DNA of 51,241 nucleotides. It comes from a virus (taxonomy: Duplodnaviria; Caudoviricetes). Below are positions 3,063 to 40,813 of this stretch, in pieces. The stretch spans positions 1 through 51,241 of IMG/VR virus record IMGVR_UViG_3300042363_001418. One strand, written 5' to 3'. The notes beneath the pieces were generated by a model. That model was given only the letters and a program-made list of their open reading frames with translations. It was not told the origin of the DNA and ran no database searches. The first letter of the stretch is position 1. Every line of letters begins with the position of its first letter. The position numbers and the translations under genes are program-made.

Positions 3063-3530
3063 ATGAAGGCGTTTAAGTCATTCTTCAAAGAGGTAAATCC
3101 TGAAATCGATTACGACCCAGAAGAGTTAAAAAAAGGAATAGAAGTCGAATTAGAGCATACAAATTATAGAGCTATTGCTACTATAATAGCTAAGCATCAT
3201 CTAGCTGAAGATCCGCATTATTATACTAAACTTAAAAAGGTAGAATCTAAAGTTAAAGCAGAAGATGAAGAGCGTCGCTTAGATAAGAGCTGCTGGGAAG
3301 GATATCATAAGGTAGGTACTAAGATAAAGGGTGGTGTACGCGTTAATAATTGCGTTAAAAACTCAAGTGAGGATGCTGAGGATGTTCACAAGCCTGTTAG
3401 ACCAGGAATTGTTAAAAGTAGATTAGGTAAACTTTCTTGTACTAAAGTAAAAAGTGCTAAATCTAAACTAAAAGATAAAGGTACGAATTATGCTAAGGGT
3501 CTTCAGCGCTACATAAATTATCACTGTTGA
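3063..3530 (+). CDS. DUF5661-like protein, possibly virion-associated
   Basis: ELKKGIEVELEH...HLAEDPHYYTKL motif plus CWEGYHKVGTK..VNNCVK module. Confidence 0.6.
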   Translation: MKAFKSFFKEVNPEIDYDPEELKKGIEVELEHTNYRAIATIIAKHHLAEDPHYYTKLKKVESKVKAEDEERRLDKSCWEGYHKVGTKIKGGVRVNNCVKNSSEDAEDVHKPVRPGIVKSRLGKLSCTKVKSAKSKLKDKGTNYAKGLQRYINYHC

Positions 3531-3536
3531 TTTTAA

Positions 3537-3872
3537 ATGAGCGCATTTTATACTAAAGATAGTATGAGTGGTGAATTCCTTTCAATAAATGAATTGCATC
3601 CTATGGATGTGTTTGCTATAGGTGATGAGAAATTTCTAGTAGTAAAAAACACTTGCAGCACTGCAGCGAGTTATAAAGGTGAGTTTTACGATATAACAGG
3701 GTCTGGTATTCTGTCTTACTACAATAATGATGGGCAGCAATGCTCTATTGTTTGTTTGACTGATTTATCTATGGTGCCTCCAGCCTCTCTTAAAAAATAT
3801 AAGATTGTTTTAGCTGGAAAATTTACAGGTTTCAAATATAATAAGATTGAAACCGAACAAGTAGATGAGTAA
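3537..3872 (+). CDS. Hypothetical protein
   Basis: ORF in tightly packed operon. Confidence 0.6.
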   Translation: MSAFYTKDSMSGEFLSINELHPMDVFAIGDEKFLVVKNTCSTAASYKGEFYDITGSGILSYYNNDGQQCSIVCLTDLSMVPPASLKKYKIVLAGKFTGFKYNKIETEQVDE

Positions 3873-4713
3873 TGTTTTAATTTTAGGAGCCGGGTATGTT
3901 GGAACTGAATTGTTCTCGCATGTATTTAAAGATAAAAATAATTATTGGCTCTATGCTAGAAAAGATCTAGATTATTCTGATCAATCAACACTGAGTAAAT
4001 TCCTACTTAACAACAGTATTGACTATGTTGTTAACTGTTCTGGGTTTACTGGTAGACCAAATGTTGATGAAGGAGAGATTAAAAAGAAAGAGTGTTGGGA
4101 GCTTAATGTCTTACTACCTCTTATGATTAGCAAGATTTGTAAATCTTTAAATATCAATTATATTCATATTTCATCAGGATGCATCTATTCTGGTTATGAA
4201 AAAAAATTTACTGAAGAAGATGCTCCTAATTTTGGATTGTACGATCATTCGTCTTTCTATTCAAAATCAAAACATGCATTTGAAACACTGAATGATTATG
4301 GATGTACGATTCGTGTTAGAATGCCATTCGGTGATAGCCTTAATGAAAGAAGCTTTATCACAAAGATCTTGAAGTATGATAATTTAATTAACTTTAAAAA
4401 CTCTAAAACATACCTTTCAAGTCTTTGCGAGTTTATTGAGTATATCGTCGATAATAATATCAATGCTAACTCTATTGGTATTATTAATTTTGTAAATCCT
4501 GAAGCTAAAGATACGCAGTTTTTGGTTGATCGTATGAAAGTGTTTAACAGCTACCAAAATAAAAACTGGAAGTTTGTAGATATTAAAGATATTAATATTA
4601 CAGCTCCTAGATCAAATTGCGTTCTTTCTATTGAAAAGTTAAGAACTATGTTTCCGGACTTTTATATAGCAACAGAAGCTGAAGCTATTGAAATGGCTCT
4701 AACCAATATATAA
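3865..4713 (+). CDS. rmlD: NDP-4-keto-6-deoxyglucose reductase (RmlD/NRS-ER-like, possibly bifunctional 3,5-epimerase/4-reductase)
   Basis: GAGYVG Rossmann motif, GFTGRPNVD, SSGCIY and YSKSK catalytic motif. Confidence 0.8.
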   Translation: MSNVLILGAGYVGTELFSHVFKDKNNYWLYARKDLDYSDQSTLSKFLLNNSIDYVVNCSGFTGRPNVDEGEIKKKECWELNVLLPLMISKICKSLNINYIHISSGCIYSGYEKKFTEEDAPNFGLYDHSSFYSKSKHAFETLNDYGCTIRVRMPFGDSLNERSFITKILKYDNLINFKNSKTYLSSLCEFIEYIVDNNINANSIGIINFVNPEAKDTQFLVDRMKVFNSYQNKNWKFVDIKDINITAPRSNCVLSIEKLRTMFPDFYIATEAEAIEMALTNI

Positions 4714-4720
4714 TAATTTC

Positions 4721-5455
4721 ATGAAAGGTATCATTTTGGCGGGAGGTAAAGGTACGAGACTTTCACCTACAACGAGAGCAGTATCAAAACAGCTCCATTG
4801 TGTTTATAATAAACCAATGATTTACTACCCTCTTCAGACTCTGAAGGATATGGGCATTAGAGAGATCTTAATTATTACATCCGATGCACAGCAGTGTAGA
4901 TTGTTCCAAGATCAATTAAGAGATGGTGCACAATATGGGTTGAAACTTGAGTATGCTATTCAAGAAAAGCCTGGCGGATTGCCAGAAGCGTTTATTATAG
5001 GCGAGCATTTTATTGGAGTTAATGATGATGTAGCTCTCATTTTAGGTGACAATGTCTTTATTACTAATAAAGAGTTAAAAGCTGAACCTAATACTATTTT
5101 TACTTACAAAGTAAAAGACCCATCAGCTTATGGAGTTGCAGAATTAGATGATAAAAATAATTTGGTTAATATTATCGAAAAGCCTACAGAATTCGTAAGT
5201 GATAATGCAGTTGTTGGTCTGTATGTATTTACACACGCTGCGGTAGGGCTAGCTAAATCATTAAAGCCATCAAAAAGAGGAGAGCTTGAAATTGTTGACC
5301 TTATTAGTAAATTAAATGAGGAGGAAGGGCTATCAGTAGAAGAGCTACACGGTTTCTGGTTTGACTGCGGTAATCATGATGATCTTCTCGAATGTGCAAA
5401 TTTAGTAAAAGCTATTGAACATAGAACTAATAAGAAAGTTGGATTACATGAATAA
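4721..5455 (+). CDS. rmlA: Glucose-1-phosphate thymidylyltransferase
   Basis: MKGIILAGGKGTRL.P.T..SKQL, KPMIYYPL, LILGDN, EKP, RGELEI. Confidence 0.95.
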   Translation: MKGIILAGGKGTRLSPTTRAVSKQLHCVYNKPMIYYPLQTLKDMGIREILIITSDAQQCRLFQDQLRDGAQYGLKLEYAIQEKPGGLPEAFIIGEHFIGVNDDVALILGDNVFITNKELKAEPNTIFTYKVKDPSAYGVAELDDKNNLVNIIEKPTEFVSDNAVVGLYVFTHAAVGLAKSLKPSKRGELEIVDLISKLNEEEGLSVEELHGFWFDCGNHDDLLECANLVKAIEHRTNKKVGLHE

Positions 5456-6434
5456 TAAAATATACTTAGTTACTGGGGGTTGTGGATTTATCGGATCGCA
5501 TGTTATCGATGAGCTCTTAAAAGATAATAGTATTCAAAAAATTATTAATATCGACAAGCTAGGAGTAGGTTCTGATATAAATAATGTGGCGACTGACCCT
5601 CGGGTAATTAATTACTATATTGACATCTGCGATGAAGAACTACATAATATATTTAAGAAACATCTTCCAGGATACATTATCCACCTTGCTGCGGAATCTC
5701 ATGTCGATAGGTCTATCACAGACCCTCTATCGTTTGTCAATTCTAATGTAGTTGGTACTGGTAATGTTCTAGAATGCATGCGAAAGTATGTACCTGACGC
5801 TAGAATGGTACATGTTTCTACTGATGAGGTATACGGTCATTTGCATTACGATGATTACCCCTTTCTAGAGACAACACCTATTAATCCTAGATCACCTTAT
5901 TCTGCATCAAAAGCAGGTTCGGATATGTTAGCATTTTCTTATAGAACTACTTACGAGCTAGACATTACTGTTACGCGTTGCTGTAATAATTATGGTCCGC
6001 GTCAACACGACGAAAAATTAATACCTACAATTTTTCGCACACTACATAAGGGTAAGAAAATTCCTGTGTATGGCGATGGAAAGAATATGCGCGAATGGAT
6101 ATTTGTTTCTGACCATGCTAAAGCTCTATTAGAGATTTTGCATATTGAAAATGCTAGATCGTTATATAATATTTGGGGCGAGAAACGATACGAAAATATT
6201 GAGCTAATCCGTAAAATTATAAAGCATCTAGTTAATGTAAATGAGCGATATGATAGAGGTTATTTAATTACTAATTATATTGAGTTTGTAGCAGATAGAC
6301 CAGGTCACGATTTATGTTACAAAATGGAGTCTATTTATAATAACATTGATTCTCTCAAAACCCAAATTAATTTTGACGATGGAATAATAAAAACCTTATT
6401 ATACTATAAATCTAAATATGAGAAAAAAGATTAG
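5448..6434 (+). CDS. rmlB: dTDP-glucose 4,6-dehydratase
   Basis: VTGGCGFIGS, HLAAESHVDRSI, STDEVYG, PYSASKA, DRPGHD; start at ATG 5448. Confidence 0.95.
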   Translation: MNNKIYLVTGGCGFIGSHVIDELLKDNSIQKIINIDKLGVGSDINNVATDPRVINYYIDICDEELHNIFKKHLPGYIIHLAAESHVDRSITDPLSFVNSNVVGTGNVLECMRKYVPDARMVHVSTDEVYGHLHYDDYPFLETTPINPRSPYSASKAGSDMLAFSYRTTYELDITVTRCCNNYGPRQHDEKLIPTIFRTLHKGKKIPVYGDGKNMREWIFVSDHAKALLEILHIENARSLYNIWGEKRYENIELIRKIIKHLVNVNERYDRGYLITNYIEFVADRPGHDLCYKMESIYNNIDSLKTQINFDDGIIKTLLYYKSKYEKKD

Positions 6435-6600
6435 ACAGCCCTTTAAGTATGGTGCATACCTTATCGAATATCGAGAAGGTAAGGATGGTCTATTAAAAAT
6501 TCTTAAAGAAAAACTTGATACTTTTGATGAAGCGCAACTAGCTAGAGAGAGACTCTTGCAATCTGGTTGTGGCGATCCTATTATACGTAAAGTGGGATGA
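6418..6600 (+). CDS. Hypothetical protein
   Basis: Overlapping operon ORF. Confidence 0.55.
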   Translation: MRKKIRQPFKYGAYLIEYREGKDGLLKILKEKLDTFDEAQLARERLLQSGCGDPIIRKVG

Positions 6601-7094
6601 TTAAATTCAAGCCAACGAACGGTATAGTTAAGATTACTAATCTTGATTATGATCTTATTTCGTTTATATTGAGTAGGTTTGTAAGACTAAAGAGGAAAGT
6701 TACTCTACGCGTAGAAAGATCAAAACGTAGCTATTCATATTATTACGACAAGCGTAAAGTTATCTGCATAAACACTAACGAAGGAACTTCGTTAAAATTT
6801 ATTATTGCAACCCTTCTTCATGAAGTAAGGCATTGCATGCAATTAAGAGAAGAGTGTAACGAAATTGATTTCACATACACTAGTTATTGGAATTATTATA
6901 GCTCACCAGAAGAGAAAGATGCGCGTAAATTTGAAAAGCTTGCTACAGAAGTTTGTAAGATTTATAAGCAATATAAAATAATTGAGAATAAATTTAAAAA
7001 ATATGATCTTGATATCTTTAAGGAACTGTGCCATAATGAAAAGGTAGACAATAACGATCTGCAATTAGAAACAAACAACAAAACAACACAATAG
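6597..7094 (+). CDS. Zincin-like metallopeptidase
   Basis: LLHEVRH (HExxH) plus downstream YYSSPEEKDA. Confidence 0.7.
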   Translation: MIKFKPTNGIVKITNLDYDLISFILSRFVRLKRKVTLRVERSKRSYSYYYDKRKVICINTNEGTSLKFIIATLLHEVRHCMQLREECNEIDFTYTSYWNYYSSPEEKDARKFEKLATEVCKIYKQYKIIENKFKKYDLDIFKELCHNEKVDNNDLQLETNNKTTQ

Positions 7095-7103
7095 AATAAT
7101 AAT

Positions 7104-7940
7104 ATGGGATTCATTACTAACATTACTTCACTCGAGGACATCCCTCGTTTCAATGTTGTAAAAGAAGAAGTCTTTGACTCGCGTGGAGAGAGGGTCAAGG
7201 GATTGTATACACTGATGCGTGAAGATACGCGAGACCACCTCGGAGTGTGTCGTGATAAGTATCGACCAATCCAGCTAGATGAAATGCTCGATATTGTTGA
7301 TACCGCTACGCAGCGCGTTGGTGGCATTGAGCATGTAGGGTATACGTTTTCACGAAACGGTAAGCGAATTGTACTTCAATCAAAACTTAACGAACAATTT
7401 GATATCAACGGTGATAAAGTTGACGGTATGTTTTATACTGTGATTGACAACTCTGGTTCAAATTCGAATAAGATTATTCCATCAACGCGACGTATTGTGT
7501 GTGATAATATGCTTCACATTGTCAAGCAGGAAGCAGAACAACGTAGAGGAAAAGGCCTTCGTCACTCCTTCTCGTTCGATGAAAGCGTCAGTGGTTTGAT
7601 TTCAAAGATTGAGAGTAATATTAATATCGTTAAAACATTTAATAAAACGGTAGAGATGCTCCAAGGTAAGAAATTCAATGAAGATCAGATGAGACAGCTA
7701 GTTCAGCGTCTTATTCCATCTCGTAACAACAAAGAGGATTCTACCAAGCTGCTTGGTAAGCGCGAGTCAATTGTCGAGCGCTTTTCTAAAGGCATTGGTA
7801 ATGAAGGAAAGACGATGTGGGATGCCTTGAACGCAATTACAGAGTATGAATCTCATCGCAAATTTACGCCTGAGAAGCTCGTACGTACTCTTTCTACTGA
7901 GAACCTCTCTAACAAAGCTCTTGAGATTCTTACTGCGTAA
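7104..7940 (+). CDS. DUF932 family phage/plasmid protein
   Basis: LGV...Y.PIQ, RIVCDN, LRH, TMWDALNAITEY motifs. Confidence 0.8.
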   Translation: MGFITNITSLEDIPRFNVVKEEVFDSRGERVKGLYTLMREDTRDHLGVCRDKYRPIQLDEMLDIVDTATQRVGGIEHVGYTFSRNGKRIVLQSKLNEQFDINGDKVDGMFYTVIDNSGSNSNKIIPSTRRIVCDNMLHIVKQEAEQRRGKGLRHSFSFDESVSGLISKIESNINIVKTFNKTVEMLQGKKFNEDQMRQLVQRLIPSRNNKEDSTKLLGKRESIVERFSKGIGNEGKTMWDALNAITEYESHRKFTPEKLVRTLSTENLSNKALEILTA

Positions 7941-8164
7941 TGAATATATTTAGAATGATCGATATGCACGATACGAAAGATGGTGTTCTTATCGATATGA
8001 AATACGAAATTGTAGACGGTTTAGAGAAAGTTATTGATATTAATATCCGAAATATTATAAATAACATCGTCGGTGAGGTATTAGAGCTTACTAATCCAAT
8101 GTACAAATTGGCTTTTGCAGCTAACTTTCTCTCACTACTTGAACAAGAACGTAACAAACAATAA
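7940..8164 (+). CDS. Hypothetical protein
   Basis: Translationally coupled ORF. Confidence 0.6.
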   Translation: MNIFRMIDMHDTKDGVLIDMKYEIVDGLEKVIDINIRNIINNIVGEVLELTNPMYKLAFAANFLSLLEQERNKQ

Positions 8165-8340
8165 TGTATAAAGGTGTAATTGGTAAATATCGGTTTGAGC
8201 TTGACTCAGAAACAGATCGTGTGATGGTATATAAAGAAGGAGATGGTGTTGAGCCTATTGCTTATATAAATGTTAAGCCTGATATCTCTGAAAAAGGATT
8301 CCATTATGAGATTATGGATTGGGCTGCAAAGCAAAGTTAA
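8164..8340 (+). CDS. Small hypothetical protein (58 aa, not in ORF track)
   Basis: MYKGVIGKYRFELD...AAKQS*; TAATG coupling. Confidence 0.65.
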   Translation: MYKGVIGKYRFELDSETDRVMVYKEGDGVEPIAYINVKPDISEKGFHYEIMDWAAKQS

Positions 8341-8356
8341 GGAACTCTAATATAAT
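8339..8356 (+). promoter_or_regulatory. AAGGAAC-N5-TATAAT putative early promoter (representative of about 35 copies)
   Basis: aaggaac tctaa tataat aagtt ATG; same spacing recurs throughout the window. Confidence 0.85.
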
Positions 8357-8361
8357 AAGTT

Positions 8362-8607
8362 ATGTTCTGTGGATGTGGAAACCTAGTAGAAGAAGGTCGG
8401 CAGGAGCTCGGTCTTCGTAGTTGTAAGTCGTGTGCTTTTTCTGGTCCAGATATACCTAGACCTCGCGGCGTTATGATTTATGGTCATAAGACCGCTGGAG
8501 AAATCGAGATTCATTCAGCAGATAGCTGGAAAGAGAAGCGCAAATATTACGTGCCAAATTCGGCTAGAAGTTGCGTTAAGAATTTTAGTCGTAGCGTGTG
8601 TTCTTAG
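8362..8607 (+). CDS. Zinc-finger protein (DksA/TraR C4-like)
   Basis: CGCG...RQELGLRSCKSC. Confidence 0.55.
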   Translation: MFCGCGNLVEEGRQELGLRSCKSCAFSGPDIPRPRGVMIYGHKTAGEIEIHSADSWKEKRKYYVPNSARSCVKNFSRSVCS

Positions 8608-9235
8608 AATATCGACAAGCTTTGCTGCAATATTTCTTAGTAGCTAATAAATTTTTTTCAATATACAATACTTTATTACACTTTGAACATGACCATTTAA
8701 TCCTTTGTTCGGAATGTATATAGCGCCACTTAATAGCACACTCTGGAGAACAGTATTGTCTTTTATTAGCTGCGGTCGGAAGTACCTCGAAGTTTTTATT
8801 ACAACCTTTACAGCATAATATTACCTTATTCTCCTGACTTGCATTCTTACAAGCTTGACTACAAAACTTTCGCTTTTGACATTCAAGAGCCTCAAAAGAA
8901 TCCTCGCAATAATCACATACAATATTAACTCTCGGTACATGTAAACGTCTTCGGAGCCATCCATACATTTTATTTTTTCTCCAATACCTGTTTACCTTTG
9001 TATCTTTCGACATTACATCACAAGCTCTTACCAAACGAATGTTTTCAGGATATATCTTTACCAACAATTGATGAGCAACAAAGTGCTCCTCTGGCGTTAA
9101 ATCTACCATATTATCTACTTCATCACTCCCACCCATGCATCTAGGTATAATATGATGGCTTTCTTTATACCCGTCTATTATAGGTCGATGCTGACCACGC
9201 TTCACCAGATGCTCGTATATTAATTTGTAATTCAT
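8585..9235 (-). CDS. HNH homing endonuclease with C-terminal zinc-ribbon repeats
   Basis: ESHHIIPRCMGGSD..DNMVDLTPEEHFVAH; CxxC...YCS..C repeats. Confidence 0.85.
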   Translation of the reverse strand: MNYKLIYEHLVKRGQHRPIIDGYKESHHIIPRCMGGSDEVDNMVDLTPEEHFVAHQLLVKIYPENIRLVRACDVMSKDTKVNRYWRKNKMYGWLRRRLHVPRVNIVCDYCEDSFEALECQKRKFCSQACKNASQENKVILCCKGCNKNFEVLPTAANKRQYCSPECAIKWRYIHSEQRIKWSCSKCNKVLYIEKNLLATKKYCSKACRYSKNTRYD

Positions 9236-9295
9236 GACACATATATTTAATCAAACAGATATGGAGTTTATGCGTAAACTTCCTAAATAACAATT

Positions 9296-9356
9296 AGCCT
9301 AGCAGGTTTTGTCACTTTGTAATTCATGACAGATTTCGCTGTGACCCTGCTAGGCT
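9296..9356 (+). ncRNA. Putative hairpin antisense sRNA to the adjacent HNH start
   Basis: Stems agcctagcagg/cctgctaggct and gtcac/gtgac; loop 9316-9331 is identical to 9224-9239; TAAATA just upstream. Confidence 0.55.
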
Positions 9357-9394
9357 TTAATCTCTCTATAAAGGAACACTATTATAATACTTAT

Positions 9395-9559
9395 ATGCAG
9401 TTAACATTTGAAAATATAGTTGTATTTTTAGCATTTATACTATATACTTGTGTATGTATTGCTCATTGCTATAAACAAAACTACGCATGGGGCGTAGTCT
9501 GGGGAGGGTACGCTGTATCTAACTTAGGCTTGATTGTAGCGCAATCATTAACAAAATAA
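9395..9559 (+). CDS. Small membrane protein
   Basis: Two hydrophobic segments; starts 6 nt after GGAAC promoter at 9373. Confidence 0.65.
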   Translation: MQLTFENIVVFLAFILYTCVCIAHCYKQNYAWGVVWGGYAVSNLGLIVAQSLTK

Positions 9560-9597
9560 ACAACTAACAAATAGAGAGTGAGGATAACGTCATAGGA

Positions 9598-10314
9598 ATG
9601 TTCGATTATATAAGAGTAGGAACAACTCTACCAGAGTTGCCAGATGCAATCATCTCTCACTGGGGAGATAAAGTAAGTGATATTGCCTTTCAAACGAAAG
9701 ACACGCCAAATCAAGCAATGTCAACCTATAGGATTGATGGGAATGGTCAATTGTGGTTTAAGAAGGTTGAAGGTCATTGGGATGAGGGCAAAAAGGTTGC
9801 TGACGATGCCCCGTTTAGTGAAAAGATAGCCGCAATGGGTCGCTTTGTAGTCGATGCAGAGTGGTATGAGAAAGAATGTTTTAGCGGAAACATTTGCTTC
9901 TATGAAAGCTATAGTCATCCAGAATATCATGAACTCGATGATCATGCTGGAAATAGCGATGATTGGATGAGGTTCGTCCGTGGGTGGGTCGAATATTCTG
10001 CACTCTTTAAAGATGGTAAGTTAATTGGTGATATAGAGTTGGTTAAACATGAAGAACCTCAAAAGCTATCTGATGAAGAGCTTGCAGAAAGTAAAGCAAA
10101 GGTTGCAGCTCAACGCAAAAAAATGGAAGAGCAGTTTAAAGAAAATCGTAAAAAATACCCTACTGTTGAACAAAAGCTTATTGACAATATTGATCGTGAG
10201 TGTAAACTTGTAGAGGTGATTATGGATGAAGATGATCTTAGTTACGCTTTGAGTAATATTAGGATTCTAATAAAGGAATATAGAAAAAATATTGATAGAT
10301 GGTATGAAAGCTGA
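9598..10314 (+). CDS. Conserved-looking phage hypothetical protein
   Basis: MFDYI...FQTKD...WVEYSALFKDG pattern. Confidence 0.7.
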   Translation: MFDYIRVGTTLPELPDAIISHWGDKVSDIAFQTKDTPNQAMSTYRIDGNGQLWFKKVEGHWDEGKKVADDAPFSEKIAAMGRFVVDAEWYEKECFSGNICFYESYSHPEYHELDDHAGNSDDWMRFVRGWVEYSALFKDGKLIGDIELVKHEEPQKLSDEELAESKAKVAAQRKKMEEQFKENRKKYPTVEQKLIDNIDRECKLVEVIMDEDDLSYALSNIRILIKEYRKNIDRWYES

Positions 10315-10480
10315 AGAAGAAAAACTATACACTTTTCGCGGTAAGACGTTTCCATGTAATCCGAAAATAATACAACAATTGAACCTAGCACTTACCTATA
10401 ACAGAGCAAAAGAACGTTATGAAGAAGTTAAATCAAGAACAACAGACGAAAGTAGAGACAGCGAAAGAAGCGGTAATTAA
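10304..10480 (+). CDS. Hypothetical protein
   Basis: Short ORF overlapping neighbours. Confidence 0.4.
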   Translation: MKAEEEKLYTFRGKTFPCNPKIIQQLNLALTYNRAKERYEEVKSRTTDESRDSERSGN

Positions 10481-10622
10481 GCTTCAAGAAGCGCAAGAAA
10501 TTATCTATTCCGACTTAACTAAAGAAATTGGTTGGGATAACGATTGGCTTTATGATTACATCTTTAATTGCTCTGCAGAAGATGAGTATTCTATTAAAGT
10601 AAGAGGAGAAATTTTTGAATAA
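10419..10622 (+). CDS. Hypothetical protein
   Basis: ORF in operon. Confidence 0.6.
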   Translation: MKKLNQEQQTKVETAKEAVIKLQEAQEIIYSDLTKEIGWDNDWLYDYIFNCSAEDEYSIKVRGEIFE

Positions 10623-10624
10623 TT

Positions 10625-10846
10625 ATGGCAACAGGAAATATAGCTAGAAACGATATTACAGGTCGGTTTATTAAATCAGAACCACCTACAGCAAAATATA
10701 CAGCAAATTTTGACGATGCGTTTAAAAAGAAATCACTTCGTGTGTGGTATCTTGAAGAAGGTATTATAATTGACGCGGACGGTGATGAGTATGAAGCTCT
10801 TGTAGGTTATTCAGAATTTAGAACTCACTTTAAAAACAATCAATAA
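10625..10846 (+). CDS. Hypothetical protein
   Basis: ARNDITG..IKS motif; ORF in operon. Confidence 0.65.
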   Translation: MATGNIARNDITGRFIKSEPPTAKYTANFDDAFKKKSLRVWYLEEGIIIDADGDEYEALVGYSEFRTHFKNNQ

Positions 10847-10847
10847 T

Positions 10848-11087
10848 ATGAAATTAATTTTAGCGAGTGCAGGTTGGTGCGGTCCGTGTCAAGTAGTTAA
10901 GTCACGTCTTAAAGCTGACAACCTAACTGATAAGGTTGAAGTAAAAGATGCAGACGTTGATATTGCATTCTTTAAAGAAAATAACATTAAGTCTGTTCCG
11001 CGTCTTTTGGTTATGGAAAATGAAAAAGTCGTAGATATAATTCAAGGTACAGAAGATATTATTAAACGCATTAAGCAGGATCAATGA
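10848..11087 (+). CDS. Thioredoxin/glutaredoxin-like protein
   Basis: WCGPC active site and SVP cis-Pro motif. Confidence 0.85.
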   Translation: MKLILASAGWCGPCQVVKSRLKADNLTDKVEVKDADVDIAFFKENNIKSVPRLLVMENEKVVDIIQGTEDIIKRIKQDQ

Positions 11088-11518
11088 GCTATAACCTTTT
11101 TCTAGATGACTTGCGTAAGCCAGAGCATGCATATATCCATCCTAAACGTGATGGAAACAGTATCGTTATAACATCGCATAGTTTAAAAAATATGTCAGGT
11201 GTGTCTAACGATGCATGGGTCATCGTTCGCACCTATGAAGATTTTGTGAGAACAATCGAAGAGAGAGGAATTCCTAATGCAGTAAGTTTTGACCATGATT
11301 TGGATGAAGAACACATTCGCCACTATTACAAGGTCACAGAAGCTACCGGTGTTATTGAGTATGCAAATTTAAAGGTAAAGACAGGAAAACATTGCGCAGA
11401 ATATTTTGTACAAAAGTATAAAGAACTATGCCCTCCATACATTCCTCATGTGTATGTGCACAGCGCAAATCAATGGGGAGTACAAGAAATTAAAAACACA
11501 TTAAAAGAAATTTGTTAA
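11084..11518 (+). CDS. Cyclic-phosphate-processing receiver-domain protein
   Basis: LFLDDLR, SFDHDL, KTG, VHSAN motifs. Confidence 0.75.
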   Translation: MSYNLFLDDLRKPEHAYIHPKRDGNSIVITSHSLKNMSGVSNDAWVIVRTYEDFVRTIEERGIPNAVSFDHDLDEEHIRHYYKVTEATGVIEYANLKVKTGKHCAEYFVQKYKELCPPYIPHVYVHSANQWGVQEIKNTLKEIC

Positions 11519-19983: not shown

Positions 19984-20257
19984 TCCGACTTAGCTCAGCG
20001 GCAGAGCGGGTGACTGTTGTAATGGCAGCTTAAAGTAGAAATACTTTATGAAAAACTAACCAAATTCGGGGAACGCTTTAAAATGCCAATCCCGAGCGAA
20101 GCCTTGAAAGAGGAACGTGTAGAGACTTGACGGTTGGTATCTTAGCAAGTAATGTTGAAGATAATGAGAAAGTCCAGACTACAAACTGAGAAGGTAGCGA
20201 AAGCTATAGTAGTAGGTAATCACTAGGTCCATGGTTCGATCCCATGAGTCGGAGCCA
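19984..20257 (+). tRNA. tRNA-Asn (GTT), intron-containing; exons 19984-20017 and 20217-20257
   Basis: Spliced product is a canonical 75-nt tRNA with ggtga CTGTTAA tcact and CCA. Confidence 0.9.
20018..20216 (+). mobile_element. Group I intron (199 nt) at tRNA-Asn position 35/36
   Basis: P caaattcggggaa, Q aatcccgagc, R gtagagacttgacgg, S gaaagtcc; P1 ctgt/gcag with U.G at splice site; terminal G. Confidence 0.9.
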
Positions 20258-24051: not shown

Positions 24052-24124
24052 GCCAATGTATTCCAACGGTAGAGAAGTATGGCTTAGAACCATAAAAGTG
24101 TGGGTTCGAATCCCTCCATTGGCA
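24052..24124 (+). tRNA. tRNA-Leu (TAG), short variable loop
   Basis: GCCAATG/CATTGGC; tatgg CTTAGAA ccata; no CCA. Confidence 0.8.
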
Positions 24125-24165
24125 CTTTTTTTACCAATTCGAGTATCTCTAGACTAAATACTAAT

Positions 24166-24795
24166 ATGTCTAGTAGATGTTTATACTGCGATGAGATTAT
24201 ACCTAAGCAAGAAAATAGAGGTGAAAAATATAAAAAGATATATTGCAATAGTAGTTGTGCAGCGAGTGCTAATAACTTAAAAGGGAAACACGATACCCTC
24301 TTTAAAGAAAAGCATCATTTGATATTGCAAATGATGGAGGAAGGACTCCCCACCGCAATTATTTCGAAAAAGCTCGGTGTATGTAGAGATACTTTCTTAA
24401 AAAGATATCCTGAATATAAAGATATACTTAAAAAGAGCTCGTTCAAGAAATTATCTAAATCACGCGAAGAATATTATATTAATAAAGCGAAATCAAAAGA
24501 GGAGCGAAAAGAGCAAATATTTGAAGAAATAAAACTAACAGGTAGGTGTGAGTCTGATAAACAATGGAGTTTGCAGAAAAAATGGCTTAAATTGTTCTTA
24601 ATAGAGCGTGACGGTAATAAGTGTTCGCAGTGTAGTTGGTGTGAAAAAAATCCCGTAACTGGTAATATACCAGTTCATATTGATCATATCGACGGTAATA
24701 AGGAGAACAACCATCTCAGCAACGTCCGTATTCTGTGCCCTAATTGTCATTCTCTCACACCAACTTATGGATCAATAAAAAGAAATAGAGATTGA
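24166..24795 (+). CDS. HNH endonuclease
   Basis: CSQC...HIDHIDGNKENNHLSNVRILCPNCHS; start at 24166 after GACTAAATA. Confidence 0.9.
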   Translation: MSSRCLYCDEIIPKQENRGEKYKKIYCNSSCAASANNLKGKHDTLFKEKHHLILQMMEEGLPTAIISKKLGVCRDTFLKRYPEYKDILKKSSFKKLSKSREEYYINKAKSKEERKEQIFEEIKLTGRCESDKQWSLQKKWLKLFLIERDGNKCSQCSWCEKNPVTGNIPVHIDHIDGNKENNHLSNVRILCPNCHSLTPTYGSIKRNRD

Positions 24796-24843: not shown

Positions 24844-25129
24844 GGCCGTGTGATGAAATTGGTAAACATTGCGGACTTAGAGAAATTTGAGTGCCCTGTT
24901 TGAAAAGATAGGAGTAGAACTCGTCAAATTCGGTGAAGGCTTTAAAATGCTAACCCCGAGCCAAGCCTAAGAAATTAGGAAGGTGTAGAGACTAGACGGC
25001 GAGGATCTAAGGTAGAGATACTATGATCAAGGTATAGTCCAGACCACAAACCGAAAGGGTAGTGAAAACTATAGTGGTATGAAAATCCGTTGCTTCGGCT
25101 TGTCGGTTCGAGTCCGACCACGGCTACCA
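24844..25129 (+). tRNA. tRNA-Leu (TAA), intron-containing; exons 24844-24878 and 25082-25129
   Basis: Spliced gcgga CTTAAAA tccgt; long variable arm; CCA. Confidence 0.92.
24879..25081 (+). mobile_element. Group I intron (203 nt), trnL(UAA)-type, position 34/35
   Basis: P caaattcggtgaa, Q aaccccgagc, R gtagagactagacgg, S aaggtatagtcc; P1 actt/gagt with U.G; terminal G. Confidence 0.92.
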
Positions 25130-25642: not shown

Positions 25643-26036
25643 GGGTGCGTTCTGGTTTCGACTGTACGAGTGTCCTATTGATTAGCATGCAGAGGAATGA
25701 CAAGGTTGGCCTCTTAAAAAGCCTTTCAACAAAAACAAACGGCAAAGCTAAAAACGTCGTGAACGCAATCTTCGGTCGCGGTTCCCGTAACGAGTCATTC
25801 GTTGGTGGTGAACTTGCTCTCGCAGCTTAAGTTCTAAAACGCTCAGAGAAAAACCTGCTCTGCTCTGAGTACAAACCAGGTAACCCAAACAGTATGCATT
25901 CTGTCTAATGCATTGGTGGAGGACGAAGTCAATTCGTCCCTAGGAGTGGTTCACCTTAACGAACCAAATATAAGCATGTTTGAAGATCGATAGAAGCTAG
26001 TAGAGGACAGGGGTTCAATTCCCCTCGCATCCACCA
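25643..26036 (+). ncRNA. ssrA: tmRNA; tag (A)GKAKNVVNAIFGRGSRNESFVGGELALAA at 25741-25830
   Basis: GGGTGCG..GGTTTCGAC 5' end, G3:U70, gcatg/gcatg P2 ends, T-arm plus CCACCA, tag ending LAA*. Confidence 0.93.
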
Positions 26037-35631: not shown

Positions 35632-36375
35632 TTATAATTTTATTGCATTTTTAATACTTGTATAATATCTTCCTTGTGCTCCAGCCCAGCCTAGCCTTTT
35701 ACAAATTGCATTTAAGCTGACTCCGTTTGAATGTAATTGTTTTATTAAACTTAAATTGTCTTTTATAGTATTATCTATTTTATTCATTTTTTCTTTATGA
35801 GCCGCTTTACATTCTTGTGAGCAATATCTATTAAAGATACGTCGAGATTTAGCTTCAAAGGAAATAGAATTAAAGAGCTTATCACAGTGCTTACACTTTA
35901 ATTTTGTTTTGTCGAAATTAATTACTCTACCTCTTTCCCAACCGCTACGCAAAAATGTATCTATTTGTTCATTTTTAATTTTTTTACTGACTTGTAGTTC
36001 TTTCGAAAATACCCATGTTGTACCGTATTGATTGTTAGAAGCTCCTTTTTGTTTCAAAGATATTTGCTTAGAGTATTTTGTTCTCAACCATCCGTATAAT
36101 CTATTTTTCGAATACTTCCTGCCTTTATTGCATTTACTTGAAACAGTCATCATCATTGCTGCATGAGTTAATTTTATATTGTTAGGATATACTTTTATTA
36201 ATAATTGATGCGCTATATAGTGCTCGCGTGGTGTCAAAAATACTAAATTTTCTTTTTCATCGCTTCCACCTACACATCTCGGTATAATATGATGTTTTTC
36301 GTAGTACTGGTCACTAATTAACTCCCTATTAATAGATCTATTAATTAAGTTATTATAAGCTGCGCCATAATTCAT
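35632..36375 (-). CDS. HNH homing endonuclease
   Basis: EKHHIIPRCVGGSD..NLV.LTPREHYIAH. Confidence 0.85.
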   Translation of the reverse strand: MNYGAAYNNLINRSINRELISDQYYEKHHIIPRCVGGSDEKENLVFLTPREHYIAHQLLIKVYPNNIKLTHAAMMMTVSSKCNKGRKYSKNRLYGWLRTKYSKQISLKQKGASNNQYGTTWVFSKELQVSKKIKNEQIDTFLRSGWERGRVINFDKTKLKCKHCDKLFNSISFEAKSRRIFNRYCSQECKAAHKEKMNKIDNTIKDNLSLIKQLHSNGVSLNAICKRLGWAGAQGRYYTSIKNAIKL

Positions 36376-36887: not shown

Positions 36888-37577
36888 TTAATTTCTGCGT
36901 CTTATAATTAACAGAGCAGCTAATCCTAGAGGTAAAAGCATTGAGGTGCTTATTTCTGGTATAGCAGGTTGTCCTATAATAACACCTTCAACGTTTGGAG
37001 CTGCCTCGTTAATATAGAATGCATCCATTCCAAAGCAGAATGCCCCTTCGCCGTAGATGCGGAACAGATCGATGTTATCAAACTCATTATTTAAAATGAT
37101 ATTTGATACCTCACCAATGCCCCAGTCTTCGCTAGGTAACATATACGGAGCTGTTACTGCTGCACCATTACGGTAACCTTGAACGTAAATATGCTCATGA
37201 CCTGAAGCTGTTGCTCCTCCGTGTTGTGTATTAGATGTAATAATGAAGTAGTTAAGATCAAAAGTTGAGCCATTGATACTATGAATGTCGATTGACTCTA
37301 ATCCAGATACCCAGTGACCGTGAATAACATCATTATCTGACCCATCATAATAACTACCTACAGTTTGTGGAGAGTAATCACCTGTAGAAGATACGTAATT
37401 CAATTGAAAGCCACTCTCAACATATGACACTATATTAAAATAGATTCCGTTTTGAGTAGTTACGTGTGTATTGTTGTTAGCATCTGTTGCAGTGCCTCCT
37501 GTAAAGGTTATAACTGCTGCTTCTGCACTGAACATCATCAATGCACCGATTAGTGTTGTTAGTATTGTTTTTTTCAT
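36888..37577 (-). CDS. PEP-CTERM sorting-domain surface protein
   Basis: Signal peptide; C-terminal AIPEISTSMLLPLGLAALLIIRRRN. Confidence 0.8.
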   Translation of the reverse strand: MKKTILTTLIGALMMFSAEAAVITFTGGTATDANNNTHVTTQNGIYFNIVSYVESGFQLNYVSSTGDYSPQTVGSYYDGSDNDVIHGHWVSGLESIDIHSINGSTFDLNYFIITSNTQHGGATASGHEHIYVQGYRNGAAVTAPYMLPSEDWGIGEVSNIILNNEFDNIDLFRIYGEGAFCFGMDAFYINEAAPNVEGVIIGQPAIPEISTSMLLPLGLAALLIIRRRN

Positions 37578-39527: not shown

Positions 39528-39611
39528 TTATAGGAACTAAGATATAATTAGGAGTAGAGAAAATAAAGAATCTCAGTTGAGAAAACAAAAACATAGAATA
39601 CAATAATACAT

Positions 39612-39833
39612 ATGAAGAAGAACTGTGAAACCTGGTCAGAATACCTCGCAAATCCAAATGTGCGTCCTAAAACCTTTAACCTTACCGTTCAGCGCAATCA
39701 GCGTGGTGAGTTTGAAGTTGTTGGTCGCGGCGCTTATATGAAGCACGATATGGGCGGTAAAGCGGAATGGGTGAGTGTTGATGCTCGTGATATTGCTCGT
39801 GCTATCCGCAACAGCGGCATTAGCGCTAAGTAA
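39612..39833 (+). CDS. Hypothetical protein, paralogue of 40592-40813
   Basis: W.EYL.N.NVRPK.FN...EWV.VD.RD.ARA.RN. Confidence 0.75.
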   Translation: MKKNCETWSEYLANPNVRPKTFNLTVQRNQRGEFEVVGRGAYMKHDMGGKAEWVSVDARDIARAIRNSGISAK

Positions 39834-40455
39834 TAATAAACAAACTAATAACCGCTCTCTCTGCTTGCGCGGAGAGAGCTTTTTTTGTTCTTTGTCTTTG
39901 TGAAATGCTCATTTTATTGCGTGTTTCAGTAGATACTCCGTTTTTATACTTACAAGCAGCACTGCAAAATTTTCTAATTCCTTTACTTTTATAGTCAGTA
40001 AACTCGCAAATGCATTCTACACATCTATGTGTAAGTTTTTGTGTACTATTTTTATGTGCTAGAGACCTACACCTATAGCTACAGAAAGTAAACATTTTTA
40101 TGTAGTAGGGTCGTACGTTCTGCTCTATACCGCATTGTTTACATTTAAACACTACCCGTTCTTTAGCCTTATGCTCACTCAACCTCTCTTTAATCCACCC
40201 ATATAATTTATTATTACAAAACCTATTACCGCTCATTTTCACTAAAGCATAAACCAACTTAGGATTGTTTGGATGTATTTTGACAAGTAGCTGATGAGCT
40301 AGATAATGCTCTTCTGGAGTCAAATCCACTAAATTAGATACATCGTCTTGTCCTCCTAAACATCTAGGTGTAATGTGATGTCTTTCTTTGTAGCAATTAA
40401 GGGTTCTTTCTTTAGCTCTGCCTATAATTCTCTCGTATATTTTTTGGTAGTTCAT
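39826..40455 (-). CDS. HNH homing endonuclease with zinc-ribbon repeats
   Basis: ERHHITPRCLGGQD..NLVDLTPEEHYLAH; start MNYQK at 40455 (alternative 40464). Confidence 0.85.
   Translation of the reverse strand: MNYQKIYERIIGRAKERTLNCYKERHHITPRCLGGQDDVSNLVDLTPEEHYLAHQLLVKIHPNNPKLVYALVKMSGNRFCNNKLYGWIKERLSEHKAKERVVFKCKQCGIEQNVRPYYIKMFTFCSYRCRSLAHKNSTQKLTHRCVECICEFTDYKSKGIRKFCSAACKYKNGVSTETRNKMSISQRQRTKKALSAQAERAVISLFIIT
39854..39886 (+). terminator. Rho-independent terminator
   Basis: gctctctctgc ttgc gcggagagagc ttttttt. Confidence 0.75.
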
Positions 40456-40491
40456 GTCTCGCATTATTATTTATAAAAGATAAATAACTTT

Positions 40492-40558
40492 ACGCTATTC
40501 TTGGTTTAGTAAATTCATGTCTCGCACACATTTTTTAGCTTAATTCCAAGAATAGCGT
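40492..40558 (+). ncRNA. Putative hairpin antisense sRNA to the adjacent HNH start
   Basis: Stem acgctattcttgg/ccaagaatagcgt; loop 40514-40526 is identical to 40451-40463; TAAATA at 40481; T-tract follows. Confidence 0.55.
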
Positions 40559-40591
40559 TGTTTTTAAATAGGAACTATCGTATAATTAGGT

Positions 40592-40813
40592 ATGAAGAAA
40601 CAAAATGAAAGTTGGGCAGAGTACCTCAATAACAAAAACGTGCGACCAAAACAATTCAACGTCACCTTCCGTCGTACCACGACTGGTGAGTTTGAGATCG
40701 TTGGTCATCAAGCATTCATGGAAGCCAATCAAGGCCGCACTTCCGAGTGGGTCCGCGTTGACTCCCGCGACCTTGCTCGTGCCCTCCGTAACAATGGTAT
40801 CATTGTTAAGTAA
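40592..40813 (+). CDS. Hypothetical protein, paralogue of 39612-39833
   Basis: Shared motifs; GGAAC promoter at 40571. Confidence 0.75.
   Translation: MKKQNESWAEYLNNKNVRPKQFNVTFRRTTTGEFEIVGHQAFMEANQGRTSEWVRVDSRDLARALRNNGIIVK

Follow-up and report, generated by a model that had tools for sequence, protein, structure and literature searches.

A Conserved HNH Endonuclease and Hairpin Cassette in a Phage Group, with a Predicted Antisense RNA Directed at the Endonuclease Start Codon

A phage HNH endonuclease gene and a hairpin encoded beside it probably form a single mobile cassette, in which the hairpin is the likely source of a ~70-nt antisense RNA predicted to act in trans by pairing with the start of the cassette's own endonuclease mRNA (5' end and AUG) and to block its translation. 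The element is real and conserved, and it is apparently undescribed. It is present in a 51-kb virus record (IMG/VR IMGVR_UViG_3300042363_001418; the whole stretch of 51,241 nt is called the window below) that carries tRNAs, a tmRNA, and group I introns. The tmRNA is phage-encoded (window 25643-26036), the tRNA cluster holds group I intron matches at 20008-20197 and 24869-25063, and further nuclease-like ORFs lie near these introns (20382, 23196, and 24100-24795). Elsewhere in the window, a 633-aa minus-strand ORF has 69-nt tandem coding repeats at 524-1432. A 229-aa ORF (36888-37577) has a signal-like N-terminus and a C-terminus that resembles a PEP-CTERM sorting signal, a possible hint of the host phylum.

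The HNH2 locus, its hairpin, and its counterparts in the window

Two promoter-like motifs recur in the window, the early-type GGAAC-N5-TAxAAT and TAAATA, the latter named a T4-type late promoter according to the T4 consensus (PMC2677866). The early-type motif occurs in 34 copies, on the plus strand only, and precedes an ATG by 5-6 nt in 27 of 29 cases; TAAATA has the same spacing in 16 of 29 cases, with exactly 5 nt (TAAATA-N5-ATG, the modal spacing) in 12 of the 29. From this 5-6 nt spacing, which is also the basis for placing the start sites, we infer that most messages in the window are leaderless, with +1 at the sixth base after the hexamer. Predicted leaderless transcription is near-universal across the window and extends to both promoter classes.

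HNH2 is a free-standing HNH endonuclease gene of 209 aa on the minus strand (39826-40455), with an N-terminal HNH domain and CxxC zinc-ribbon repeats, and its orientation opposes that of its neighbor genes. On either side of it lie two copies, 58% identical, of a 73-aa gene on the plus strand: copy A (39612-39833; early-type promoter motif 39533-39548, terminator hairpin 39854-39879) and copy B (40592-40813; early-type promoter motif 40571-40586). One late-promoter-like TAAATA faces HNH2 on the minus strand (40468-40473), and a second faces the hairpin on the plus strand (40481-40486), the stem beginning 5 nt past it. By the +1 rule, the HNH2 mRNA would start at G40462, giving a predicted leader of 7 nt (40456-40462, minus strand) ahead of the AUG at 40455, and the hairpin RNA would start at A40492, the first base of the stem. 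The start chosen by the ORF finder, ATG 40464, lies upstream of the predicted +1, and the likely start of HNH2 is therefore ATG 40455. A TTGACA-16-GATAAT sequence at 40280-40307 was rejected as a promoter because it falls in conserved codons and such matches occur at chance level (6 found, 4.6 expected).

The predicted anti-leader RNA (40492-40565, plus strand) comprises a 13-bp closing stem (40492-40504 / 40546-40558), a 41-nt loop, and a U-tract; a segment of the loop (40514-40526, plus strand) is the complement of the HNH2 leader, the AUG, and two further bases. These features had been pointed out in an initial annotation of the same DNA, and all are present as described: the 13-mer at 40451-40463 is repeated at 40514-40526, the inverted repeat that encloses the copy is perfect over 13 bp, a T-tract (TGTTTTT) follows the stem, and the two TAAATA motifs are divergent. 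The fold of 40490-40566 has an energy of -21.5 kcal/mol (z = -5.4), and none of 200 shuffled sequences was as stable. A 13-nt match within 170 nt has a chance of about 2e-5 (estimated from base composition), and 10-mers from the HNH2 start have only two sites in the window, the gene and the loop. Of the 270 in-frame ATGs in the window that are followed by at least 60 aa, only two (40455 and 9235) are copied over 10 nt or more within a stem of 11 bp or longer, and the remaining hits have stems of at most 6 bp. An Rfam covariance-model search gave no hit above threshold at locus 2 or at the hairpins of 20 related loci.

The ATG at 9235 belongs to locus 1, where HNH1 (8585-9235, minus strand; 216 aa; TAAATA at 9244-9249) has a predicted 3-nt leader and is accompanied on the plus strand by a promoter motif (9284-9289) and hairpin RNA that together span 9284-9360 (stem 9296-9306 / 9346-9356, anti-leader 9316-9331). 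A third gene, HNH3 (35632-36375, minus strand), is predicted to be leaderless (TAAATA-N5-ATG) and serves as an internal control; in agreement with the initial annotation, which had seen no hairpin there, no anti-leader copy of its start was found within the 3.5 kb examined. The same annotation had assigned the HNH proteins of loci 1 and 2 to one subfamily, and HNH1, HNH2, and HNH3 do all match phrog_655 (HNH2 E 1e-48). In alignments of the HNH protein, the residues ExHH..P..GG, N, and H-x3-H are invariant and the N-terminal HNH motif is intact. A Pfam search gave no match, a PDB search gave weak matches (best E 0.002) with HNH-motif matches to McrA and a group II intron maturase, and a fold search with the HNH model (pLDDT 81, pTM 0.53) gave nothing at E <= 0.001. 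Judged by intact motif and family match, HNH2 fits a putative free-standing phage HNH homing endonuclease (Mob type, phrog_655).

Mobility and distribution of the cassette

Comparison of a related contig, L451, with the window shows that an HNH gene is gained or lost as a unit with its hairpin. Over window 4363-11175 the two sequences are 87-95% identical; in L451, 36 nt replace window 8559-9391, a segment that comprises HNH1 with its hairpin and the promoter motif that follows, and a 704-nt locus-2-type HNH-plus-hairpin cassette that is absent from the window lies between window positions 8316 and 8337. Optional insertion outside introns is thus seen both for locus 1 and for a locus-2-type cassette. 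The locus-2 cassette of another contig, L313, adjoins the same 73-aa gene as in the window. One RNA contig (depth 5.7) joins 39621 to 40655 via 59 other letters, which suggests an allele of locus 2 that lacks the HNH gene, and RNA contigs of three runs part from the window before 40655; these few low-depth contigs hint that relatives have just one copy of the gene in which locus 2 lies, with the target in the 5' part of that gene. The single 73-aa gene that these contigs suggest for the relatives differs from both copies at codons ~4-21, a candidate homing site, and a search with the 73-aa gene gave no useful viral loci. In all, RNA contigs from five runs cover a small share of the window and include neither hairpin nor HNH gene, so that they have no bearing on expression; the five runs appear to contain cassette-less relatives.

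Related loci were collected by protein searches of viral and metagenome contigs together with one promoter-plus-HNH pattern, and represent a sample (the best 80 of up to 597 hits, with two scans covering 33/64 and 17/64 parts). This sample comprises 253 distinct HNH starts, each preceded by 130 nt or more of sequence, and five come from cultured phages. A short leader, defined as TAARTA 7-14 nt before the ATG, is present in 29 of the 253. Twenty of these 29 have a divergent stem-enclosed anti-leader, 2 have one on the same strand, and 7 have neither, so that an upstream stem-enclosed anti-leader accompanies 22/29 short-leader starts versus 0/39 leaderless and 1/185 other HNH starts. For an earlier set of 205 starts, Fisher p values were 1e-16 (match versus short leader) and 8e-13 (stem versus match), calculated over related rows that are not independent. 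The sole flagged HNH gene that lacks a TAAATA leader (L386, near 2988) has an upstream near-copy of its start, which may be chance or a separate variant, and a broken HNH gene (L422, minus strand, start near 3063) is preceded on the same strand by a short antisense copy of its start. One of the 7 starts that lack an upstream copy, the second HNH gene of L430, has an anti-leader at its own 3' end (-21.1 kcal/mol), and the 3' end of this mRNA could fold back on its own 5' end or act in trans. The L430 anti-leader (3078-3089) straddles the stop codon of its HNH gene (3083-3613).

Where orientation could be decided, 14 of 15 HNH genes of the divergent type oppose their upstream neighbor; among other HNH genes, 33 of 158 do. 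At many divergent-type loci the neighbors are homologous to window genes, and the feature therefore belongs to one phage group and not to the whole protein family. Distant HNH homologues showed no cassette in an exact-match screen, so that the feature is not general to the HNH subfamily, and the five cultured-phage homologues (from 1052 records matched) have none. Further pattern scans gave no new cassette: a generic repeat-plus-promoter pattern yielded 0 HNH genes in 121 matches from viral contigs (10/64 parts scanned), and none was gained from the 56 loci of a GTDB scan or from the 3 loci of a tighter viral pattern, one of which was known before. Candidate cassettes with genes other than HNH were flagged at 6 of 329 late-promoter starts; these lie in AT-rich DNA, have stems of 7-9 bp, and were considered noise; four non-HNH divergent-promoter sites (five records) had no partner. 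In a phylogenetic analysis of 46 of the 205 rows, picked after the first tree was seen, hairpin-bearing HNH proteins were grouped in 0/200 bootstrap trees, and an AU test did not reject one clade of them (p = 0.085).

Covariation, predicted pairing, and alternative explanations

The geometry of the element was compared among the divergent loci. The match ends 3-5 nt past the HNH TAAATA in 18 of 19, and the stem starts 4-8 nt past the opposite TAAATA in 16 of 19 (exactly 5 nt in 11), counts that include two loci (L424 and L430) obtained with a pattern demanding both promoter motifs. Stems covary, with two-sided changes in 9/13 stem pairs among four locus-2-type copies and in 11/20 predicted pairs among six locus-1-type copies, and the leader substitutions of L261 and L451 are mirrored in their loops. 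The initial annotation had argued for selection over chance duplication, naming homologous loci devoid of loop-to-start complementarity as counterevidence; the homologous loci instead keep the complementarity, with different sequences and compensatory changes. Its description of locus 2 as a sequence-independent second instance holds insofar as the sequences differ, and does not extend to separate origins, since the AU test does not reject a single clade.

Computed pairing is specific to the cognate partner. With correction for accessibility, the mean interaction energy is -15.8 kcal/mol for cognate versus -4.3 kcal/mol for non-cognate pairs, and the cognate pair ranks first in 16 of 21 loci and otherwise second only to near-identical leaders. 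The cross-specificity proposed earlier for the two loci of the window is reproduced in these calculations, both for RNA2 (-18.8 kcal/mol on HNH2 versus -4.9 on HNH1) and for RNA1 (-17.4 on HNH1 versus -8.2 on HNH2). Plain cofolding, a method that cannot model pairing inside a loop, gives only -2.7 versus -1.6 kcal/mol. Four single mismatches are embedded in the match (three of them independent), and all are G-U in the direction of an antisense RNA pairing with the mRNA; the first mismatch after the ATG shows no G-U bias (5 wobble, 5 A-C, 9 transversions). Folding energy favors neither strand, the antisense strand being more stable in 12 of 21 loci. At 19 of 19 loci a purine stands opposite position -1, as expected if it either pairs with a U at the 5' end or stacks on the end of the helix.

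Pairing of this kind could also serve to stabilize or activate the mRNA (e.g., by shielding its 5' end from nucleases), as with Asr9 of ISPpu9, an antisense RNA that raises transposase translation (PMC8450116). Activation is improbable here, given that the duplex would cover the AUG itself and only 3-9 nt before it, where there is no long leader structure to open. It is very unlikely that the hairpin is only a terminator or insulator, shielding the next early gene from the late promoter or from read-through, with the loop copy a leftover of local duplication. A U-tract does follow the stem on the strand of the flanking genes, at least 5 T within 8 nt being found on the antisense strand at 15/21 loci versus 2/21 on the other strand (U-tracts are weak at 6/21 loci, including locus 1), and the L294 hairpin comes directly after the stop codon of the upstream gene. 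A leftover would decay, yet the loop tracks changes in the leader and stops at the predicted +1, it remains antisense where the hairpin has been flipped to the HNH strand (L268 and L294) or moved, and the ordinary terminators of the window have loops of 4 nt, not the 41 nt of the locus-2 hairpin. In the two same-strand variants (L268 161-245; L294 2898-2975), the loop that carries the anti-leader belongs to a terminator-like hairpin located ahead of the HNH promoter, and the gene upstream of the L294 hairpin, whose stop codon it directly follows, is glycosyltransferase-like.

That both copies are DNA operators for autorepression by the HNH protein, with the stem a separate matter, is most unlikely. 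I-TevI binds an operator overlapping its own late promoter (PMC2988022), and a DNA site would tolerate flipping, but the second copy is found 20-35 nt beyond the outward promoter and always within a covarying stem, its edge coincides with the predicted mRNA 5' end, embedded mismatches keep G-U, and L313 has the same leader as the window despite a different protein (76% identity over 76 aa). Scarcely credible is an RNA that acts as a partner of the HNH protein and directs it to the start site of the HNH gene on DNA, so that the protein represses its own transcription. The non-template DNA strand at +1 would be an equally good pairing partner for the loop, and gene and RNA move together, but no RNA accompanies HNH3 or most relatives, the protein consists of a small HNH with zinc ribbons and has no fold match at E <= 0.001, and a MAFFT alignment of 20 hairpins revealed no shared sequence handle beyond the promoter motif (the all-against-all alignment is too poor for a covariance model). 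A target-site duplication was rejected because the copy tracks the leader, flips, and moves.

Proposed mechanism and relation to known systems

The preferred reading is translational repression by a trans-acting antisense RNA. The copies at loci 1 and 2 stand in direct orientation to each other, so that no single transcript pairs both, and any RNA pairing must be in trans. Both TAAATA motifs would act as late promoters with +1 six bases on, and the hairpin RNA would begin with the first base of the stem and end with the U-tract. The near-leaderless HNH mRNA would then thread its free 5' end into the loop, a mode of pairing known from IS10 RNA-IN/RNA-OUT, and a duplex of 12-16 bp would hide the AUG. 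If the stable RNA accumulates, the nuclease would be held low or limited to a brief late pulse, and the leader of 3-9 nt may be an address that restricts each RNA to the gene it accompanies. Simultaneous firing of two promoters of the same class does not in itself account for the timing of nuclease production. The purpose is likely to be the limiting of off-target nicking, the usual rationale for endonuclease control (PMC2988022). More tentatively, the combination of an address leader and a matching trans RNA could amount to an RNA-based incompatibility, in which each homing endonuclease senses its own copy number and leaders diversify so that new cassettes escape silencing. If that possibility is correct, the nuclease would be quiet when all genomes in the cell carry the cassette and more active in mixed infection.

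Separate small RNAs with short, cognate-specific complementarity to the leader of an adjacent mRNA are represented by divergently encoded type I antitoxins (TisB/IstR, ShoB/OhsC, ZorO/OrzO) and by the C4 RNA of P1/P7; unlike in those systems, the RNA predicted here would be directed at a mobile HNH nuclease of a phage of lytic type, and it has no Rfam match. The closest parallel in function would be IS10 RNA-OUT/RNA-IN, in which a ~69-nt antisense RNA of a mobile element acts on the translation start of the element's own nuclease mRNA and repression rises with copy number (PMC5006887). A stem-loop of ~70 nt complementary to a translation start is likewise computed here. RNA-OUT is encoded on the opposite strand of the same DNA and has 35 nt of automatic complementarity, whereas here the promoters are back to back, the predicted +1 sites (40462, minus; 40492, plus) point apart, the complement is a separate copy of 10-16 nt dependent on co-evolution, with a near-leaderless phage late mRNA as its predicted target.

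RNA structure also limits translation of T4-like homing endonucleases with TAAATA-type late promoters, as is predicted here. Cis-acting hairpins with a nested late promoter are described for T-even I-TevI, I-TevII, I-TevIII, and segB and for Aeh1 mobE (PMC2988022), and hairpins are described on fractured-gene endonucleases (PMC2677866). Those hairpins fold in a single transcript, and transcription from the late promoter bypasses them, whereas here a divergent partner on the other strand would target the late transcript; pairing within one strand at loci 1 and 2 yields a duplex of only -6.9 and -9.0 kcal/mol, and the same-strand variants (L268 and L294) could act in cis as well. Another parallel is CfrI, an antisense RNA of the lytic T4-like cyanophage S-PM2 whose gene is linked to that of a free-standing homing endonuclease (PMC2984593 and PMC12197685). 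CfrI is ~225 nt long and overlaps psbA and the endonuclease gene, whereas the RNA predicted here is ~70 nt, non-overlapping, and matched through a short loop segment.

A non-overlapping anti-leader RNA on a homing endonuclease is not described in the literature searched, which included few subscription papers. Brakes on phage homing endonucleases are known, and one review (PMC2988022) leaves open why control is so tight. These known brakes act in cis or at the DNA level, and a separately encoded, co-evolving antisense RNA would add a layer in trans. If the proposed repression is true, the cassettes would be among the few defined pairs of small RNA and target in lytic-type phages and would extend antisense control to near-leaderless messages, while about twenty natural and, by computation, largely non-cross-reacting RNA/leader pairs would be candidate compact translational switches. 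Relative to the systems compared above, what appears to be new is the back-to-back layout that excludes cis action, the occurrence of three interchangeable geometries, and the joint mobility of the gene and its hairpin.
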